Origin: Thermodesulfobacteriota bacterium
Lineage (GTDB): Bacteria; Desulfobacterota; Desulfobulbia; Desulfobulbales; SURF-16
NCBI GenBank assembly: GCA_049323655.1
Contig: JBMONO010000011.1
Location: forward strand, 21,574-85,573
Direction of reading: 5' to 3'
DNA length: 64,000 nt
Shown here: positions 3,710-57,437 of the stretch, one piece after another
Layout of the letters: every line of letters begins with the position of its first letter
Position numbering within the stretch: the first letter of the stretch is position 1
The notes under the pieces: model-generated
What the model was told of the DNA's origin: nothing
The model's database searches: none
Seen by the model: only the letters and a program-made list of their open reading frames with translations
Program-made: the position numbers and the translations under genes

Positions 3710-4387
3710 GTGTTGCAAATGAACACCGTGAAAAATATCGCTGCCGATGAAAAGGGATTTGTCCTGGTCGCCTCGTTGCTGATTCTGCTCATTCTCGTCA
3801 TCATCGGCGTTGCCGCGACCACCAACACCTCCAGCGAGCTGCAGATCGCTGGCAATGAAAAGGTGCATAAAGAGACCTTTTACGCCGCCGAGGGCAGTTT
3901 GGCGCTGGGGGTCGAGGTGCTGGAGCAGAATCTCTTTTGTCCGACGGGGTTCACATCGACCGGTGTAGATGACAATGGCGTGACGGTTGCCGATCTGGAA
4001 GGAACCATCCGGGTCTATGAACGAAACGGCAATAATATGATCCTTTATCAGAACCCCACTCCGCCTGCTGCCGATATCGGTGACACCACGAAAATGGATG
4101 TTGCCTTCTCCTATCCCGTTGATCCGGCATTCAATCTTGATGCAGTCGATGCCGCCGGCGCCTCCCAGGTTTCGCAACTCTATATCGGCGGCCGGACGGA
4201 AATGGGGCCGGGCGGATCCCTGCAGATGGCCGCCGGCTATGAAGGCAAGGGCAAGTCGGCCGCCGGCGGCGGGGTGCTGAAGCTCTATGATATCACCGCC
4301 GTCCATCGCGGCCAGGTCAACAGCGAATCGATCATTCAGATCGGCTGGCGCTATCCGGTCGGCTGGACCGGTAGTTGTAATTATTGA
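3710..4387 (+). CDS. pilX: PilX-family pilus assembly protein
   Basis: G|FVLVASLLIL (no Glu5, typical of PilX), ELQIAGN, FYAAEG. Confidence 0.85.
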   Translation: MLQMNTVKNIAADEKGFVLVASLLILLILVIIGVAATTNTSSELQIAGNEKVHKETFYAAEGSLALGVEVLEQNLFCPTGFTSTGVDDNGVTVADLEGTIRVYERNGNNMILYQNPTPPAADIGDTTKMDVAFSYPVDPAFNLDAVDAAGASQVSQLYIGGRTEMGPGGSLQMAAGYEGKGKSAAGGGVLKLYDITAVHRGQVNSESIIQIGWRYPVGWTGSCNY

Positions 4388-7500: not shown

Positions 7501-10389
7501 GGCACGGAGAGAAAAGTGGACTGGGTGGGTGATCTTCATTCACTGTTCGTCGATCAGTATGGTTTTATGTATGAAGATACCAATGGTGATCGCATCATGA
7601 GGCCAACCGAGGATCTCGATGGTGACGGCAAACTTGATGAGGATGAGGACGCCAACGGTAACGGCATCCTTGATGCCGGCGAGGATCTCGATGGCGACGG
7701 TCATCTTGATGTCCATGAGGACAGAAACAATAATGGCGTTATCGACGGCGACGACAAACGGGTCATCATCTATTTCGACAGTGTCGCCAACCGGTCGCGG
7801 GGCTGTTATAATACCTCCATTTTCGATACCGGTATCTGCACCAATGCCAGGGAGCTGCCGGAAATCCGCTACCTCTGGTCAGCCAACGACTGGCTGGCGA
7901 AAATCTCCAATCAACCCTTGTCCGGCGTTACCGTTCCTTATGACGCCGACGATGTCTATCACAACAGGGCCACCTATCTGTCAAACCAGCAGCGGCGCCA
8001 TATTTTTACCTGGAATGATCTGGACAATGACGGAATCGTTGACCAGGCGGAAGTGCTGCCCTTTGTCGAGCGCGATGATGCTGGCAACCCGATTGATTGG
8101 ACTGCTTTTGCCGTCAACAACCGCGGTCCGGTCGAAAAGGATTTTCAGGCGGCGGACAATGACGGGGTGCGTCGGATTATCCGCTGGATCCGCGGCGCCG
8201 ACGAGGCGGGCAGCCGCAGCCGGGAGATTCCGGTCACCGACGGCAGCGCCACCTTCGCCACCTGGCGGCTGGGTGATATCATCCACTCGACCCCGATGAC
8301 GGTCACCTCGCCGGCGGAAGGCTATCATCTCATTTATAATGATAAATCCTACGCGCAATTTTTCGCCAAGTATCAGAACCGGCGGCACATGATCTACATG
8401 GGTGCGAACGACGGCATGCTCCATGCGGTTAACGGCGGTTTCTACAGTGAAAAGGAGAAGAAATTCTGTCTGGCGCCGCTGGCCGCGGACGGCACCTGCA
8501 ACGAGGTCGCCGTCAATGCGCCTGCCCTTGGCGCCGAGATGTGGGCCTATGTTCCATACAATCTGCTCCCGCATCTGCAATGCCTGACTGATAACGATTA
8601 CGCTGGCGCCAACCACAAATATTACGTTGATCTGCGGCCCCGCATCTTTGATGTCAAGATTTTCAACGAAGAGCCGGCCTGCGCCGATATTAATGATCCC
8701 GGCTGCATCCATCCCCAGGGCTGGGGCACGATACTGGTAGGCGGCATGCGCTTCGGCGGCGCGCCGCTTGATGCGGCGAACGATCTCGGCCAACCCAATA
8801 CCGACAACCGCCGCTTTGTTTCTTCCTATTTCATTCTCGACATCACCAATCCGGAAGCGCCGCCGCTGCTGCTCGGTGAGGTAACCCAGACCCTGGCGGA
8901 TACGGATGGCAACGGCATGCCGGAGACGCCAGATTATGCGGATCTCGGCTTTTCCACCGTCATTCCCACCATGGCGATCATGAAGGATTACGGACCTGAC
9001 AAGACCCACGGCACGGTCGATGACGCCAATGACTGGTATCTGGTGTTCGGCAGCGGACCCAGTGGCCCTGACGCCATGAAGGGGGTCAGTGACCAGAAGG
9101 CCAGGTTGAGTATTCTCTCCCTGAACAATCTGGTGAACAACAGCAACGAACCGGTAAAACCTTTGCGGATCAGCGCCGCCGCGCCGGCGCCGGACGGCAC
9201 CATCATCCTGGAAGGTTCACCGGATGGCTTTGTCTCCGATCCCATTACCGTGGACTTCGATATCAATCCTTCGATTGAGAACTATAAGTCCGACGCCATC
9301 TATTTCGGCACCGTCGAAGGTGATTTCGATGCCACCGGCTCCTTCTGGGAGGGCGGCGGCCATCTCTATCGCCTCGTCACCAGAAAGCTCGATGCGACCG
9401 GCCGTTCCGAATATGGTCGGATCGATACGGTTGTCCCGCCCCTTGAGGCCGCCGAGCCGGTTACCACCCCGGCCGAGTGGCAGATCAAGCCTCTGCTCGA
9501 TCTGAGCAGTGATGTGGTGGATGGCAATGGCAATACCCATCCGGCCCAGCCGATCACCGCCTCACCGGCGGTCGGCACCGATGGCAAGAATTTCTGGGTC
9601 TATTTCGGCACCGGCCGCTTCTTCGACGCCAATGACAAGACCGATGCCACCCAGCAGAGCTATTACGGCATCAAGGAACCGATGGTTTTTGTCGATCCTG
9701 CTGATTGCGGCAACAGTCTCAGATACTTTACCTGGGAGTCGGTCGAGCTTGCTCCCTCCGGCGCCGTTCCCGGTTCCATGGGACTGCTCAAGACCGATGA
9801 GATTCTTGTCCGGGAGTCGTTTTCCAGCACAACCTCGGCGATGACCTGCCTCGACGGCACCACCGCCTGTCTGCCGGCAAGCCTTGTCGCCGCCGGGACG
9901 ACGACATTTAACTACCTCATTGATTATTTTGCCGGCAGCCGCCTCTGCACCAATCCTGATTACTTTGGCTACGCCGATGGCTGGTACCGTGATTTTTATC
10001 CTTACGCCAATCGTGAGCGCAACCTCGGCCAGGGCACCCTGCTCGGCGGTCTGCTGACCTTCACCACCTACCAGCCTTACCAGGATACCTGTCTGGCCGA
10101 GGGGCTGGCCTATCTCTACGGCCTCTATTACCAGACCGGTACGGCCTGGCATCTGCGCATTTATGGGGATTACGGGGTGGATCTGCTTGGCAACGTGGAG
10201 GCGAAAATGATGCTCGGCCGCGGCCTTGCCCTGACCCCGAACCTCTATGTCGGCGCCGGCGAGGATGACCAGACCGAAGGTGGGCCGAAGGTCTTTATCC
10301 AGACCAGCACCGGCGAGATCAAGGAGATTCAGCAGATGAATCTGCCCTATGCGACGAAGCCGGGCAAGTACAAATGGTATGAGTGGTAA
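4594..10389 (+). CDS. pilY1: Giant PilY1/PilC pilus tip adhesin (~1930 aa)
   Basis: Signal peptide; vWA MIDAS DNSGSM and TPLAEA; C-terminal PilY1 beta-propeller motifs LGDIIHSTP, GANDGMLHA, VYFGTGRF, GWY; follows pilX. Confidence 0.9.
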   Translation: MKRCARYLVRGLLIAGLILPMTPPAAIRADPCSIGLGEPPFLSFGVRANLLLMLDNSGSMLDLAYVGASGECVDNSYSPAIQYTGIYNPDKWYKWTEGVQPWKSGTTYAVGALVYSEGIFYKATAATGLASTGVEIGFDTQVTWAPAYSIPVWRHGTLYPAKSFVQYEGQLYYSSGGGTANDTDPADGLDIYDDTGVAWAPVESTWRDGAAYLVGAIVSDGGMLFKATSSGTANGTGVWDDSGVNWSRLDEGYFEETAYASSADAAAAFLAEPGSPSSHVDLFVKIVSASDGVSVVPTRVTAFAAKGNFLNWASSSKFDIQKKILTGGKYDADAERLISQSRGCANRGFFKEVTMADGKVLTLSIEGSDEENRIDSTDDTTRISVLALSASGFLTSSQYEACQDALEELQKDVVNQGQLKQNITDCLDYGGTNNVMAESNAAYNHALHDCWYYSKHGSFPVGIQDVKRSCEHIYDHDIPPATITTDSTGYICSGDYVPGVLDHLRDGYIGRCWEPATIPAGCAPVPCGPPVGTGGNPRCGTDGYIYECSGNYNAKKDECNKAWVLKLIDADGPGPGTCTAADIASASPAKWTDDNFNNTADECIQQAIEDYCGYMAIPEVIDPSDQVLATGEFWNIPAVLIDSGVASFFGGDRPLIVMKGYLKQTTKPKGVLHETAADLRIGVMAFNAVGALTECQAADPGSAIVKFCPDDNKDGARVIADVRLGTDVSVSGSGTHIDDVVKQINDTRATSWTPLAEAMYTAIGYYTQNPAMRLDNADFSLVNPVINWCQDNHVLIITEGASTADINQQVIDFVNNAPISDGDQATDAKCSDGLDGSTYLDDLTYFAQHAAADQLYPAGTSQLPSDDGSLHDKQNITTHIVATGTLRNTGDNECSPDKIMLEAAANGGTTLMVSANPAELEANLLAKFNELRQRASAGSAASVISSARGGEGAIYQAIFWPELKRLDSTGTERKVDWVGDLHSLFVDQYGFMYEDTNGDRIMRPTEDLDGDGKLDEDEDANGNGILDAGEDLDGDGHLDVHEDRNNNGVIDGDDKRVIIYFDSVANRSRGCYNTSIFDTGICTNARELPEIRYLWSANDWLAKISNQPLSGVTVPYDADDVYHNRATYLSNQQRRHIFTWNDLDNDGIVDQAEVLPFVERDDAGNPIDWTAFAVNNRGPVEKDFQAADNDGVRRIIRWIRGADEAGSRSREIPVTDGSATFATWRLGDIIHSTPMTVTSPAEGYHLIYNDKSYAQFFAKYQNRRHMIYMGANDGMLHAVNGGFYSEKEKKFCLAPLAADGTCNEVAVNAPALGAEMWAYVPYNLLPHLQCLTDNDYAGANHKYYVDLRPRIFDVKIFNEEPACADINDPGCIHPQGWGTILVGGMRFGGAPLDAANDLGQPNTDNRRFVSSYFILDITNPEAPPLLLGEVTQTLADTDGNGMPETPDYADLGFSTVIPTMAIMKDYGPDKTHGTVDDANDWYLVFGSGPSGPDAMKGVSDQKARLSILSLNNLVNNSNEPVKPLRISAAAPAPDGTIILEGSPDGFVSDPITVDFDINPSIENYKSDAIYFGTVEGDFDATGSFWEGGGHLYRLVTRKLDATGRSEYGRIDTVVPPLEAAEPVTTPAEWQIKPLLDLSSDVVDGNGNTHPAQPITASPAVGTDGKNFWVYFGTGRFFDANDKTDATQQSYYGIKEPMVFVDPADCGNSLRYFTWESVELAPSGAVPGSMGLLKTDEILVRESFSSTTSAMTCLDGTTACLPASLVAAGTTTFNYLIDYFAGSRLCTNPDYFGYADGWYRDFYPYANRERNLGQGTLLGGLLTFTTYQPYQDTCLAEGLAYLYGLYYQTGTAWHLRIYGDYGVDLLGNVEAKMMLGRGLALTPNLYVGAGEDDQTEGGPKVFIQTSTGEIKEIQQMNLPYATKPGKYKWYEW

Positions 10390-52732: not shown

Positions 52733-53767
52733 GTGGACCCCTCAACCCGCAATGCCAGCCCCCTTCTTGTCGGGATCGACCTCGGCACGTCACGCACCGC
52801 GGTCATGACCAGTACCGGCTTCCGGCAGATTACCCGTTCCATCGTCGGTTACCCCCGGGATGTCGTCAGCCTCAAACTGGTGGGCAAAAATCAGGTTTTC
52901 GGCGATGAAGCCCTTAAATATCACTCTGCCCTGACCCTTTACCGGCCCCTTGAAGACGGGGTGATTCGCGAAGCGAGCAAGAGTGACTACAACGCCGCCT
53001 ATGAGTTGCTCAAGCATGTCATCGGCCAGGCCAAGCAGGGGAGCAATGAGTCGGCCTGTGGAGTCATCGGCGTTCCGGCCCGGGCATCGGTTATGAACAG
53101 GGAGCTGCTCCTGCAGCTTGCCGGCGACCTGCTGAGCCGGACTGTTGTCGTCTCCGAACCGTTCATGGTCGCCTATTATCTTGACAAGCTCTCCAACTCG
53201 ATCATCATCGATATCGGCGCCGGCACCGTCGATATCTGCGGCATGAAGGGAACCATCCCTTCTCCCGATGATCAGGTCACCCTCCTCAAGGCCGGGGATT
53301 ATATCGACGAACGATTCGAATCCGCCATCCGCCAGCATTATCCCGAGGCCCAGGTGACCCGAAATTTTCTGCGGCGCATCAAGGAAGAACATGGATTTGT
53401 CGGCCAGGCGGAAAAACCGGTGATGGTGACCATGCGGTTCGGCGGCAAACCCTACCAGATCGACATCACCGACGATCTTCGTCTGGTCTGTGAAAGTATT
53501 GTGCCCGACATCGTTGAACACCTGGAAACCATCATCAAGGGATTTGATCCGGAGGATCAGCCGGAAACTCTGCGCAACATCTATCTTGCCGGTGGCGGTT
53601 CCCAAATAAAGGGACTTGACCACTATCTCGCAGCTCAACTGCAAGGCTACGGTGAGGTGCGGGTAACCTGTGTGCATGACTCCGATTTTATCGGCAGCGC
53701 CGGAGCTCTGAAAATGGCAACGGAAGTCCCCCCTGAACTGTGGGAGCAAGTCGGCTTCCTGAGCTGA
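52733..53767 (+). CDS. mamK: MamK-family actin-like ATPase, paralog 1
   Basis: GIDLGTSRTAVM, SIVGYPRD, IGVPARAS, VSEPFMVAY, DIGAGTVDIC.MKGT.P..DQVTL.KAG.YIDE, GGGS, GALKMA.E.P..LW: MamK-type rather than MreB-type signatures. Confidence 0.82.
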   Translation: MDPSTRNASPLLVGIDLGTSRTAVMTSTGFRQITRSIVGYPRDVVSLKLVGKNQVFGDEALKYHSALTLYRPLEDGVIREASKSDYNAAYELLKHVIGQAKQGSNESACGVIGVPARASVMNRELLLQLAGDLLSRTVVVSEPFMVAYYLDKLSNSIIIDIGAGTVDICGMKGTIPSPDDQVTLLKAGDYIDERFESAIRQHYPEAQVTRNFLRRIKEEHGFVGQAEKPVMVTMRFGGKPYQIDITDDLRLVCESIVPDIVEHLETIIKGFDPEDQPETLRNIYLAGGGSQIKGLDHYLAAQLQGYGEVRVTCVHDSDFIGSAGALKMATEVPPELWEQVGFLS

Positions 53768-53780
53768 TCACGTGTGAATT

Positions 53781-54281
53781 ATGGATTTTTTTATCTGGTT
53801 CCTGTTTCTCGTCCTGGGGATCGCCGCGGGCAGCGGCGGCACGGCTTATTTTCTGCGTAACAAGGAAAAGCAGGAAAGCGAGCAGACAAAAAACGGTTTT
53901 GAAGAGCAGATCAACGCTCTCAACAACCAGATCCGCGATCTCAAAGCGAAGATGGAAAGCGTCCGCGATGAGGGAAAGCGCTACTGGGATGAACTGCAGC
54001 TTGAGAAGAAATTACGTCAGGAGGCGGAGGAAAAGGTCAAGGTCATTCCCGGACTCGAATCACGGCTGCAGGATAAGGAAGAGCAGGTGGCGGCCCTGGT
54101 CCGGGAAAACGACGACCTGAAAAATTCCCTTGAGACGGCGGTCAGGGAACTGGCTGAGGAGCGCAAATCCTTCCAGGAAAGTCTCATTTATGTCCAGGGA
54201 AATCATTACCTCCCGGCCGGAGTTGTCAGGAACATGATGCGGCAGCAGGAGGAAAAGGGGGGAGAGGGGAGCAAGAGCTGA
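53781..54281 (+). CDS. Single-pass membrane-anchored coiled-coil protein
   Basis: N-terminal hydrophobic helix (FFIWFLFLVLGIAAG...AYFL), then an E/K/Q/L heptad-rich stretch of about 110 aa. Confidence 0.75.
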   Translation: MDFFIWFLFLVLGIAAGSGGTAYFLRNKEKQESEQTKNGFEEQINALNNQIRDLKAKMESVRDEGKRYWDELQLEKKLRQEAEEKVKVIPGLESRLQDKEEQVAALVRENDDLKNSLETAVRELAEERKSFQESLIYVQGNHYLPAGVVRNMMRQQEEKGGEGSKS

Positions 54282-54338
54282 AACCGTCATTCCGTTTTCC
54301 TGGTCATATCTTTTTAAATTATTAACGAAGGACTTCTC

Positions 54339-55406
54339 ATGATGGAAATCCAGCACAAGATACAGGACACACACAAACTGCTCCAGAATCCTCTTCTGGT
54401 TGGCATTGACCTCGGCACCTGCCGGACAGCCGTCATGTCGAACCGGGGCGCCCGCATTATGGTGCGTTCGGTGGTGGGCTATCCCAAGGATGTCATCAGT
54501 GAGCGGATGGTGGGCAGTGGCCCGATCATCGGCCAGGATGCCATTCAGAAACGGAATTTCCTCGACCTCTGTTATCCGCTGGCCGACGGGGTGATCCGCG
54601 AGGCGAGTGAACGCGACTATGATGCCGCCTATGAGTTGATCCGTCATGTGGTCGGACTGGCCCGGCAGGGAGGGGATACCGCCGTCTGCGGCATCATCGG
54701 TGTACCGGCCCGCGCCTCGATCATGAACAAGGAGCTGCTGCTTGACATTGCCAAGGAGGTCATGGCGGTGGCGCTCGTCGTCTCCGAACCATTCATGGTC
54801 GCCTATCAACTCAACAAACTGAGCAACTGCATTGTCATCGACATCGGCGCCGGTACCGTTGACATCTGCGGCATGAAGGGGACGGTCCCCGCCGCTGATG
54901 ACCAGGTGACCTTTCTTAAGGGCGGTGATTTTATCGATGAACGGCTGGAGGCGGCAATCGCCCGTCGCTATCCCGGGGTCCAGATCACCGAATCGGTGGC
55001 CTGCGCCATCAAGGAGGGCCATTCCTTTGTCGGTGACCCGCCGCAGCCTGTTATCGCCAAACTGCGGATGGAGGGGAAACCGGTGGAGCTCGATGTGACG
55101 GATGAGGTCCGCGCCGTCTGCGAAAGCATTGTGCCGGACATCGTCGAGCAGCTGGAAACGCTGGTGATGAAATTTGATCCTGAGGACCAGGAGGAGGCGC
55201 TGCGCAATATCATCCTGGCCGGCGGCGGCTCTCGCATCCGCGGTCTTGACAGGATGATCGCCCGGCAGATGCGCGATTATGGCGAGGTGGTTGTTACCTG
55301 CGTCGACGATCCCGAGTTTATCGGCAGCGCCGGCGCCCTTAAGCTGGCGATGGAGATTCCCACGGAAAAATGGCCGGAAATCGGAGTCATGTTCGGGGCT
55401 GAGTAG
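54339..55406 (+). CDS. mamK: MamK-family actin-like ATPase, paralog 2
   Basis: GIDLGTCRTAVM, SVVGYPKDVI, YPL.DGV, IGVPARAS, ALVVSEPFMV, DIGAGT, VACAIKE, GGGSRIRGL, VTCV.DP.F. Confidence 0.85.
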   Translation: MMEIQHKIQDTHKLLQNPLLVGIDLGTCRTAVMSNRGARIMVRSVVGYPKDVISERMVGSGPIIGQDAIQKRNFLDLCYPLADGVIREASERDYDAAYELIRHVVGLARQGGDTAVCGIIGVPARASIMNKELLLDIAKEVMAVALVVSEPFMVAYQLNKLSNCIVIDIGAGTVDICGMKGTVPAADDQVTFLKGGDFIDERLEAAIARRYPGVQITESVACAIKEGHSFVGDPPQPVIAKLRMEGKPVELDVTDEVRAVCESIVPDIVEQLETLVMKFDPEDQEEALRNIILAGGGSRIRGLDRMIARQMRDYGEVVVTCVDDPEFIGSAGALKLAMEIPTEKWPEIGVMFGAE

Positions 55407-56846: not shown

Positions 56847-57437
56847 ATGGACAACAGGCTGCAGAACCTGATCGAGAGGATCAGGGAACTTGAAAATGAG
56901 CTTGCCCGTGATATAGAGAGCAAGGAAAAGGAATTTTTTTATCGGATCCGTGGGAAAAAGGTTCGTTTTGACCGGGAGATCCAAAAACGGCAACACCTGC
57001 TGGTCAAGCGACTGCGTCACTTTCTGCGGGACGCCCCGCTCCTCCATTTTCTCACTGCTCCGCTGATCTGGTCATGTCTGCTGCCGGCCTTATTTCTCGA
57101 CGCAATCGTCTCGGTCTATCATGTCGTTTGTTTTCCCATTTACGGCATTCCCAGGGTCAAACGGGGGGATTATATCGTCATTGATCGTCACTCGCTGCCC
57201 TATCTCAATATCATCGAAAAGCTTAATTGTGTCTATTGCGGCTATTTCAACGGCCTCATCGCGTATGTGCGGGAAATCGCCGCCAGGACGGAACAGTACT
57301 GGTGTCCCATCAAGCATGCCAGAAAAACCCGGGCCGTCCACAGCCGTTACGGTAAGTTTTCCGAATATGGTGACGGTGAGGGCTACCGGAAAGGCATCGA
57401 GAAAATTCGCCGCGATTTTCACGATGTCAGCTCCTGA
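56847..57437 (+). CDS. Conserved hypothetical membrane protein with Cys/His motifs
   Basis: N-terminal coiled coil, hydrophobic segment, NCVYCGYFNG, EQYWCPIKH; AAGGA RBS. Confidence 0.7.
   Translation: MDNRLQNLIERIRELENELARDIESKEKEFFYRIRGKKVRFDREIQKRQHLLVKRLRHFLRDAPLLHFLTAPLIWSCLLPALFLDAIVSVYHVVCFPIYGIPRVKRGDYIVIDRHSLPYLNIIEKLNCVYCGYFNGLIAYVREIAARTEQYWCPIKHARKTRAVHSRYGKFSEYGDGEGYRKGIEKIRRDFHDVSS

Follow-up and report, generated by a model that had tools for sequence, protein, structure and literature searches.

Two MamK-Family Actins and a Putative Membrane Tether in a Conserved Gene Cassette Outside Magnetosome Clusters of Desulfobulbales

Introduction

A 64,000-nucleotide stretch of the genome of a Thermodesulfobacteriota bacterium of the order Desulfobulbales (assembly GCA_049323655.1, contig JBMONO010000011.1, positions 21,574 to 85,573 of the forward strand), hereafter the window, contains two genes similar to mamK, the gene of the magnetosome actin, with a gene for a short protein between them. 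The question raised by this locus is whether the three genes, hereafter the cassette, are an outlying part of a magnetosome gene cluster or a filament system of their own. The first-pass annotation, made from the sequence of the window alone, preferred a self-contained module of filament and membrane anchor and offered a displaced satellite of a magnetosome cluster as the alternative. Three outcomes were named that would speak against the module, namely placement of the outer proteins in an MreB or another non-MamK clade, lack of conservation of the gene order, and a complete magnetosome cluster elsewhere in the genome. The results presented here incline us, on balance, to the view that the cassette encodes a self-contained, magnetosome-independent, membrane-tethered actin filament system, in which the outer proteins would polymerise, the middle protein would bind them and some cargo would be served.

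The features of the cassette are as follows:

52733-53767, + strand: mamK-A, 344 aa, GTG start; MamK-family actin-like ATPase, the upstream and faster-evolving paralogue
53781-54281, + strand: mid (middle gene), a 166-aa bitopic protein outside all curated families; proposed membrane tether for filaments
53787-53843, + strand: N-terminal transmembrane anchor of mid, approximately residues 3-21, predicted from hydropathy; presumed N-out/C-in topology
53844-54176, + strand: cytoplasmic long helix of mid, approximately residues 22-132, from the AlphaFold 2 (AF2) model; probable coiled-coil stalk, presumably dimeric
54177-54239, + strand: C-terminal conserved module of mid, residues 133-153, SLIYVQGNHYLPAGVVRNMMR; beta-hairpin and helix, proposed MamK-binding site
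54339-55406, + strand: mamK-B, 355 aa; MamK-family actin-like ATPase, the downstream and more conserved paralogue

In the list of open reading frames (ORFs), all three genes are co-oriented, with 13 nt between mamK-A and mid and 57 nt between mid and mamK-B, which agrees with the tight spacing first annotated. A GAAGGA-like ribosome site is located upstream of mamK-B.

Assignment of the Outer Genes to the MamK Family

The products of the outer genes were compared with curated models of the MamK family (NCBIfam NF040964, whole-protein cut-off of 400 bits), of MreB and of BeeR. Both passed the MamK cut-off, with 478.2 bits for mamK-A and 488.3 bits for mamK-B. Both failed the MreB models (68.5 and 65.9 bits versus a cut-off of 293 for PRK13927; 51.2 and 49.2 bits versus 365.75 for TIGR00904) and the BeeR model NF053558 (223.5 and 208.3 bits versus 530). 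In the whole host genome (G000; 3.56 Mb, 54 contigs, 99.64% complete), mamK-A and mamK-B are the only loci above the NF040964 cut-off. Two weaker loci, with 64.6 and 68.9 bits on the same model, were read as ordinary MreB-like genes, and one of them grouped with MreB in the tree described below.

The two outer proteins are 61% identical over 335 residues, without gaps. An equally gapless alignment over 338 residues was obtained between mamK-B and the MamK of M. magneticum (PDB 5LJW, 5JYG and 5LJV) at 390-392 bits (391.7 for 5LJW), and in it the DLGT, SEP, DIGAGT and GGGS blocks correspond residue for residue. These are the blocks by which the first-pass annotation had recognised an actin fold in both genes, in addition to other segments that it ascribed to Magnetospirillum MamK. 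Membership of the same curated family and a gapless alignment that includes all nucleotide-binding blocks make a two-stranded MamK-type filament plausible.

The main tree contained 95 rows, four of them MreB rows used as the outgroup, and was built by a quick search with support from the Shimodaira-Hasegawa-like approximate likelihood ratio test (SH-aLRT) only. The MamK family separated from MreB with an SH-aLRT of 100, so the outer proteins did not fall into the MreB clade as had been considered. The A-type and B-type genes of the cassettes, together with the S-type genes (a single mamK followed by a mid-like gene), formed one group with the magnetosome-linked MamK of the magnetotactic genome G037 and with the locus L079, which has no assigned context (SH-aLRT 93). 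Judged by the family scores, the alignment and the tree, both outer genes are true members of the MamK family.

Search for Magnetosome Genes

True MamK proteins may be expressed from a displaced satellite that serves magnetosomes encoded elsewhere, like the second mamK-like gene of M. magneticum AMB-1, and a second mamK outside the magnetosome island is known in that strain according to the available text of PMC2818848. Magnetotactic genomes do exist in the same order (G037, G165, G045 and G148), and the magnetosome-linked MamK of G037 falls in or beside the group of A-type and S-type genes (SH-aLRT 81). The whole of G000 was therefore compared with curated models for MamM, MamB, MamP, MamI, MamQ, MamO, MamE and MamA. 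The best scores were 46 bits for MamM (cut-off 350), 51 for MamB (350), 37 for MamP (300), 85 for MamQ (250), 91 for MamO (800), 172 for MamE (800) and 79 for MamA (200), and no match was found for MamI (80). The MamE match lies within the 155-177-bit band of generic HtrA proteases in the control genomes. The positive control G037 gave 370 bits for MamM, 375 for MamB, 207 for MamP, 84.7 for MamI, 564 for MamO as a whole protein (358 + 210 in pieces), 304 for MamE, 190 for MamA and 451 for MamK. Its cluster is located on one contig in the order mamA-mamP-mamO-mamM-x-mamK-...-mamE-mamI, with mamB on another contig. Since G037 scores positive, the models are able to see magnetosome genes in Desulfobulbales. 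Genome G043, which is closed in one contig and carries the cassette, contained no MamB-like match at E <= 1e-45.

By these models, G000 holds no magnetosome gene cluster. MamK in the strict magnetosome-chain sense is accompanied by a mam cluster, and in G000 all eight models stood at generic background; the remark of the first-pass annotation that the window has no other mam genes thus extends to the whole genome.

A survey of 401 Desulfobulbales genomes was also performed (MamK at E <= 1e-50, mid at a profile match of at least 85 bits, adjacency counts read by eye from tables). MamB above the cut-off was found in one of them, and a magnetosome cluster in four (G037, G165, G045 and G148); in the last three, the mamK contig also carries MamB-like genes (234-248 bits) and others that resemble MamA and MamE. 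Of the 46 genomes with a mid-linked mamK, 42 were examined for MamB without MamI, MamO, MamE or MamA, and these have no MamB-like match on the mamK contig. Genome G045 holds both systems, each with its own mamK: an S-type pair of mamK and mid is found at L128:7512-9137 (contig C88), and a magnetosome cluster with its own distant MamK is found on contig C148 (L122 and L130). The latter is a delta-type cluster with MamA-like (227 bits), two MamB-like (236-239 bits) and MamE-like (185-206 bits) proteins. As for the position of the G037 protein, a clade of A-, B-, and S-type genes without it costs 4.1 log-likelihood units and was not rejected by the approximately unbiased (AU) test (p 0.365; 37 hand-picked rows, LG+G4). 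A satellite of a magnetosome cluster is thus extremely improbable, and we reject this alternative on the background scores of the eight markers, the positive result for G037 and the negative one for G043. The reading of the cassette as a module therefore stands.

Divergence of the Two Actin Paralogues

In the 95-row tree, the mamK-B orthologues form one clade (SH-aLRT 100) and the S-type genes another (SH-aLRT 99). The A-type genes are paraphyletic around the S-type genes and the magnetosome-linked MamK of G037, and mamK-A of the window lies in this A/S group. mamK-B evolves more slowly, with a mean pairwise distance of 0.30 versus 0.43 for mamK-A; it is 85-87% identical across genera and has 130 invariant columns in 24 sequences.

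The difference extends to the active site. Ser149, Glu150 and Pro151 of mamK-B are invariant in 24 of 24 sequences. The catalytic Glu of the pair, which we take to be the equivalent of Glu143 of MamK, is replaced in 7 of 25 A-type sequences (by Lys in four, Asp in two and Gln in one) and in none of the 11 single-copy S-type sequences; mamK-A of the window keeps it (SEP). In Magnetospirillum MamK, replacement of this residue stops ATP hydrolysis and filament turnover, but not assembly. By these measures, mamK-A and mamK-B are not equivalent.

Properties of the Middle Protein

No Pfam or NCBIfam family matched mid above its cut-off, and only coiled-coil families, among them SMC, Rad50, Filament and ATG16, appeared below it. 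The sequence search of the PDB gave no relative, and the search of the protein atlas gave coiled-coil noise only. Known adaptors of MamK are MamJ, MamY and McaA/B; no Mam-named family was among the NCBIfam matches of mid in a general library scan, whose coverage of models for these adaptors is unverified. Two existing labels of homologues were checked. A JGI label makes the 94%-identical homologue P0001 a predicted RNase H-like nuclease of the RuvC/YqgF family, and no such domain was found in scans of mid and 38 members of its family; the precomputed label PF27605 on the homologue P0012 was not returned by the Pfam scan.

Sixteen close homologues of 160-166 aa were found. In a profile search of 1.84 billion representatives of clusters at 50% identity, the strict motif of the C-terminal block described below was present in 26 of the best 150 matches, two others being close variants and two short degenerate forms, and the rest were unrelated coiled-coil proteins. 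Approximately 30 clusters at 50% identity among these best 150 matches thus carry the motif, and by this count the mid family is small. Two sequences with the motif have a different architecture: P0174 (230 aa) has MamK-like sequence at both ends and may be a fused or mis-called decayed cassette, and P0173 (340 aa) is a longer coiled-coil protein.

The protein has one hydrophobic stretch, at residues 3-21, and the best 19-residue hydropathy window starts at residue 3. Gly13 within it is invariant in 38 of 38 aligned members. The stub before the helix has a median length of three residues and a net charge of -1, and at least three Lys or Arg residues follow in the next 15 residues after the helix in 36 of 38 members. 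According to the positive-inside rule, this pattern of charges suggests an N-out/C-in topology, with the stalk and the conserved block facing the cytoplasm, where MamK is. The AF2 model, made with the family alignment (mean predicted local distance difference test score, pLDDT, of 85), consists of one continuous helix at residues 2-132 (block pLDDT 81-94), strands at residues 135-138 and 142-145, and a helix at residues 146-161 (pLDDT 77-81). The hydrophobic stretch and the long helix agree with the transmembrane and coiled-coil character that had been ascribed to the middle gene.

In the 38-member alignment, the central stretch is weakly conserved and its length differs between lineages, and outside the C-terminal motif the family has diverged to 14-40% identity. 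The C-terminal block has the consensus [LIV][IV][FYL]-x-x-G-x-H-[YL]-[LI]-P-x-x-V-[VAI]-[RQ]; across the 38 sequences, His142, Pro145 and Val148 never vary and the conservation of Leu144 is 90% or more. The regular expression H[YFLHW][LIVM]P[GASV].[VI][VAI][RQK] matched exactly one ORF in 37 of 78 named loci (see the following section), always the first ORF after mamK. It matched none in the other 41, among them every locus with magnetosome genes in its flanks. In six frames of the whole G000 genome it occurs a single time.

Evolutionary distances of mid track those of mamK-B (r 0.96, partial 0.83) rather than those of mamK-A (r 0.87, partial 0.07). Modeling of a complex of mamK-A, mamK-B and residues 115-166 of mid, with an alignment for each chain, gave interface scores (ipSAE) of 0.04 and 0.00 versus a mark of 0.32, in a run without controls, and these values carry no weight for or against binding.

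The same evidence would also suit a protein that regulates the dynamics of MamK at the membrane, whether by nucleating, capping, bundling or inhibiting filaments, or a landmark at the pole from which filaments are seeded. The correlation of mid with mamK-B and not with its immediate neighbour mamK-A agrees with such a role, and the loss of catalysis by mamK-A in some lineages would fit a specialised seed or cap complex of mamK-A and mid. The stalk is long, poorly conserved and variable in length, however, and looks more like a spacer than like a regulatory domain, which leads us to regard a regulatory mid as quite unlikely compared with a tether.

Conservation, Distribution and Loss of the Cassette

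A tblastn search of relatives found the order mamK-A, mid, mamK-B in 9 of 12 loci; two of the others contain a single mamK and one (G007) is broken. Scanning of one genome per species gave 78 named loci. Complete cassettes with all three ORFs intact make up 21 of them and come from several families, including the cultured Desulfurivibrio dismutans AMeS2 and Desulfurivibrio sp. D14AmB, and five further loci are cassettes interrupted by contig ends. The S type accounts for 12 loci, including that of the isolate Desulfobacterota bacterium M19, and a thirteenth is cut by a contig end. Homologues of MamM, MamO or MamP are present in the flanks of 19 loci, which belong to Magnetococcales, Nitrospinota, Alpha- and Gammaproteobacteria. 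The remaining named loci contain MamK without such neighbours within the flanks and are mostly from Magnetococcales and other Pseudomonadota.

In the order-wide survey, MamK was found in 90 of the 401 genomes (81 over the NF040964 cut-off), representing 29 of 83 genera. mid was found in 46 genomes, every one MamK-positive, and adjoins mamK on the same contig in 45 of them; in the exception, G134, the two are fragments at contig ends. Matches of mid below 85 bits were long coiled-coil ORFs and one fragment. mid is thus confined to the immediate vicinity of mamK. The remaining 44 MamK-positive genomes comprise 38 from two families with an amidase-linked MamK, three with magnetosome clusters (G037, G165 and G148) and three with fragments or a pseudogene (G007, G025 and G057). 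The 21 complete cassettes and the 46 genomes with mid show that the gene order, on whose conservation the first-pass annotation had staked its reading, is conserved.

The distribution within the family of the window is patchy. The cassette is present in 19 of 39 other genomes of this family and in three of four of the genus. It is absent as a block from G002 (same genus) and G161 (same family), where the gene for a YgiQ radical SAM (S-adenosylmethionine) protein is followed directly by a universal stress protein (USP) gene across a gap of approximately 240 bp:

L136 (G002:C32), 3787-4022: empty site, YgiQ-USP junction without the cassette
L137 (G161:C6), 2660-2904: empty site, YgiQ-USP junction without the cassette

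In G007, the cassette has decayed to one broken gene (L036, G007:C40, approximately 7980-8997, - strand), which still adjoins YgiQ; mid is gone. The N-terminal half of this gene is A-like (63%) and the C-terminal half is B-like (61%), and the halves are joined at a frameshift/TGA. Recombination between the mamK paralogues is a likely route of loss.

Estimates of the ratio of nonsynonymous to synonymous substitution rates (dN/dS) were 0.04-0.06 for mamK-A, 0.05-0.26 for mid, where the top value rests on very few changes, and 0.02-0.04 for mamK-B; the L072 row for mamK-B is void, as the contig ends before this gene, and the L026 rows are saturated (dS 1.1-2.3). The three genes are inherited together, are under purifying selection and are lost together.

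These data bear on the possibility that the cassette is a functionless relic, left after loss of an ancestral magnetosome cluster and drifting to loss itself. The patchiness (19 of 39 and three of four genomes), the clean absence from G002 and G161, the broken chimera in G007 and the replacement of the catalytic Glu in 7 of the 25 A-type genes are all of the kind that a relic would leave. Set against them are the three intact ORFs of the 21 complete cassettes across several families, dN/dS values of 0.02-0.1 for the informative pairs, and a mamK-B that is 85-87% identical across genera with 130 invariant columns. Moreover, the C-terminal motif of mid does not vary, although identity elsewhere in the protein has fallen to 14-40%. 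As a relic would not keep a partner-specific motif of mid, this explanation is disfavoured, and we consider it very improbable.

The cassette of the window is flanked upstream by the YgiQ radical SAM gene (TIGR03904, 661 bits) and downstream by a tandem-USP gene (PF00582), the neighbours already named in the first-pass annotation. YgiQ lies upstream in 13 cassette loci and is absent in six with enough flank; USP lies downstream in only six. Neither a promoter-like site on the + strand within the 239-bp gap upstream of mamK-A nor a + strand terminator downstream of mamK-B was found in a scan for such signals, and both results are uninformative. A look-up of sequencing runs listed 20 DNA runs, from sludge, biofilm, soil and other metagenomes, and no RNA run. 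Downstream of the USP gene, a 196-aa ORF (56847-57437, + strand) has no Pfam or NCBIfam match; it is found at the same position in G001, G003 and G002 with 75-98% identity.

An actin gene next to a gene for a small adaptor is also the layout of ParM and ParR, and a ParM-like system for DNA segregation of a mobile element was considered. In different genera, though, the cassette occupies the same place in the chromosome, between YgiQ and USP, the adaptor is a membrane protein instead of a DNA-binding one, no mobile genes were seen nearby in the ORF list and the family scans of the outer proteins list no ParM match. The probability of such a system is practically negligible.

MamK with Other Partners in Related Genomes

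The two families with an amidase-linked MamK, both also of Desulfobulbales, contain 33 MamK-positive genomes of 119 and 5 of 127. In 10 of 10 inspected loci (L120, L115-L119 and L123-L126, from genomes G096, G130, G326, G364, G150, G239, G302, G194, G327 and G285), a single mamK overlaps at its start with the gene of a bitopic amidase of 376-414 aa. One such locus is:

L120:6773-7993 with L120:7962-8996, + strand: amidase-linked MamK pair, two overlapping genes

The MamK of the one locus that was scanned scored 424 bits on NF040964. The partner consists of a cytoplasmic N-terminal peptide, one membrane helix, a variable linker and an Amidase_3 domain, which scores 97-129 bits on the AmiA and AmiC models, below their cut-offs. 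The peptide has the form LK.AIL.GVY.[ED]NLRI, with five invariant residues in nine of nine sequences. This module looks like a device that couples an actin to the cell wall. Since the pairing with an amidase was found in all ten loci, MamK with a dedicated bitopic membrane protein is a recurring design.

It is in this light that a role of the cassette itself in the cell envelope or cell shape has to be weighed, in which the MamK filament, bound to the membrane, would curve the cell, make it stiffer or direct the remodelling of its wall. The amidase partner of the sister families links this family of actins to the wall, and Desulfurivibrio species, which carry the cassette, are curved rods. On the other side, mid has only two to three residues outside the membrane and so would be unable to touch the wall itself, no wall enzyme is conserved beside the cassette, and G000 has retained MreB-like genes of the ordinary kind (two loci with 65-69 bits on the MamK model). 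We give this role some weight and yet judge it unlikely.

Several other loci with MamK or related genes were recorded. The magnetosome cluster of G148 (L127, G148:C29:12000-31500) contains a tandem pair of mamK genes and also encodes an FtsA-like actin (TIGR01174, 185 bits), two transporters resembling MamB/M, proteases resembling MamE and magnetochrome-type proteins resembling MamP/T/X, and a similar tandem mamK pair is present in L083, from a Thermodesulfobacteriota metagenome-assembled genome (MAG). About twenty loci (within L080-L111) in MAGs of Magnetococcales and related Pseudomonadota contain extra MamK copies, close relatives of cluster-linked copies, without MamM, MamO or MamP within at most 10 kb on either side. 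In the family f7, which carries the single mamK with mid, 13 of 16 genomes have a cation diffusion facilitator (CDF) transporter with 183-239 bits on the MamB model (for example, G030:C4:193150-193977), more than the 157-168 bits typical of most other sampled families. It lies off the mamK contig in 12 of the 13 genomes, and in the thirteenth (G045) it lies inside the magnetosome cluster; G030 contains no MamI match and no MamO-like match over 76 bits. This transporter is probably an ordinary paralogue.

Discussion

None of the three results that would have spoken against a self-contained module of filament and membrane anchor occurred, and this reading of the first-pass annotation is accordingly supported. 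The following mechanism can be proposed. mamK-B would be the conserved, ATP-hydrolysing former of dynamic MamK-type filaments. mamK-A, the diverged paralogue, may co-assemble with mamK-B or act at, or mark, the filament ends, and in several lineages it may have been freed from the need to hydrolyse ATP. The N-terminal helix of mid would anchor the protein in the cytoplasmic membrane with almost nothing in the periplasm, and a helical, probably dimeric stalk of approximately 110 residues would project into the cytoplasm. The invariant C-terminal hairpin and helix (G-x-H-Y-L-P-x-x-V-V-R) would grip the MamK polymer, so that the filament would be kept at a fixed distance beneath the membrane. Such a tethered filament could position or partition a membrane-associated structure or shape the envelope. 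The binding step between mid and MamK and the cargo are the weakest links of this proposal.

A number of points weigh against it. Contact between mid and MamK, polymerisation of mamK-A or mamK-B and co-assembly of the two are inferred, and that mid adjoins mamK is in itself weak support for binding. The correlation between the distances of mid and mamK-B may reflect only the more clock-like evolution of mamK-B. The hydrophobic N-terminus of mid could in principle be a signal peptide, in which case mid would be periplasmic and separated from MamK; its acidic N-terminus and the basic residues that follow the helix disfavour this. The cassette is dispensable, being absent from a genome of the same genus and from 20 of the 39 other sampled genomes of the same family and decayed in G007. 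No conserved third partner was found beside it in the named loci. Finally, as regards the magnetosome genes, the Mam models are presumably built mostly on Alphaproteobacteria, and the delta-type clusters in genomes G165, G045 and G148 fall short of the cut-offs (137-250 bits); their scores are nevertheless well above the G000 values for MamA and MamB. G000 is a draft of 54 contigs, and an unbinned island is thus formally possible for that one genome.

We tentatively entertain a broader interpretation, to which we would give somewhat less than an even chance. In Desulfobulbales, MamK-family actin may be a general-purpose modular membrane cytoskeleton with interchangeable bitopic partners that are only rarely magnetosome proteins. 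These partners would include the H-Y-L-P hairpin tether, in the cassette and in the single-actin form, and the peptidoglycan amidase with its cytoplasmic N-terminal peptide. Magnetosome positioning might then be one specialisation of an older system, and the cassette might form a two-actin heteropolymer in which mamK-B is catalytic and mamK-A is free to lose catalysis, and which would be kept beneath the membrane to organise some structure there.

Among characterised systems, the MamK of M. magneticum AMB-1 (5LJV, 5LJW and 5JYG) belongs to the same curated family as the actins of the cassette, with a gapless alignment of approximately 390 bits. The cassette differs in its location outside any magnetosome cluster, in the conserved pair of paralogues and in the new bitopic partner. 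In AMB-1, MamK and the MamK-like protein possibly co-assemble. Two MamK paralogues per cell, one of them encoded outside the main cluster, are a feature of that strain too, as described in the available text of PMC2818848. That host is magnetotactic, however, and its paralogue serves magnetosomes, whereas here the two copies flank an adaptor gene and magnetosome genes are absent.

Actin homologues in non-magnetotactic Desulfobulbales have a precedent. Bbp ('big bacteria protein'), present in Ca. Electrothrix gigas and large sulfur bacteria, is described in the available text of PMC10580974 as an actin homologue whose predicted structure resembles that of MamK. Its function is argued there to differ from that of MamK, since the two proteins occur together in some organisms, and the two systems of G045 invite the same argument. 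The Bbp clade is placed there between MamK and MreB, with genes for hypothetical and Kelch-like proteins downstream. The cassette proteins pass the MamK cut-off, group with magnetosome-linked MamKs and have a transmembrane/coiled-coil partner, and their gene order is not the one described for Bbp; they are set apart from Bbp by description only. BeeR of Verrucomicrobiota (PDB 8R2N) is another relative of MamK in non-magnetotactic bacteria, with 25-30% identity to MamK; it has no MamK cross-strand loop and forms three-stranded tubes, according to the available part of the preprint 10.1101/2023.11.07.565980. The proteins of the window differ from BeeR in their 208-224 bits against the cut-off of 530, in scoring 140 bits against 8R2N, and in their gapless alignment to MamK.

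In the pairs MreB-RodZ and FtsA-FtsN/ZipA, a bitopic protein with a short, conserved element in the cytoplasm holds a bacterial actin at the membrane or couples it to the envelope. The cassette is like them in outline only, with no sequence relation; unlike mid, RodZ and FtsN have real periplasmic domains, and MreB is itself in direct contact with the membrane. RodZ and FtsN are more closely paralleled by the amidase-linked MamK module. ParR, the partner of ParM, is a small cytosolic DNA-binding adaptor with a terminal peptide that docks on the filament, while mid is a membrane protein encoded at a fixed chromosomal locus.

MamK homologues have been recorded in non-magnetotactic bacteria, and the available text of a preprint credits them to Lefevre 2013, in agreement with the remark of the first-pass annotation that MamK-like genes outside magnetosome clusters had been noted before. 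NCBI names the Desulfurivibrio proteins 'MamK family actin-like protein', and D. alkaliphilus is a carrier by this annotation. In the literature searched on MamK outside magnetotactic bacteria, no description of the A-mid-B cassette, of mid or of its motif was found, in line with the first-pass annotation; individual genes may be included in the supplementary tables and trees to Uzun 2020 and Geelhoed 2023. The A-mid-B arrangement would be new within an already known kind, a bacterial actin with a dedicated membrane adaptor.

The findings have a practical side. According to the available texts, environmental surveys rely on mamK as a marker of magnetotactic bacteria, and in Uzun 2020, 227 of 2798 MamK-like matches were kept after a check of the scaffolds for other Mam genes. 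Among the Desulfobulbales surveyed here, 86 of the 90 MamK-positive genomes have no magnetosome cluster by the tests used, and therefore form a large, definable class of false positives for this marker, which the mid motif or the amidase partner can flag. For cell biology, the cassette gives a bacterial actin a dedicated and previously unnamed membrane partner with a candidate binding element of 20 residues, which is directly testable. The conserved pair of mamK-A and mamK-B, with repeated loss of the catalytic Glu in mamK-A only, offers a natural case for division of labour between actin paralogues. Such work is possible because the cassette is present in cultured species (Desulfurivibrio dismutans, Desulfurivibrio sp. 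D14AmB and, by annotation, D. alkaliphilus), the isolate M19 being available for the single-actin form. In these bacteria, the 'magnetosome actin' seems to be used for another membrane-linked job.

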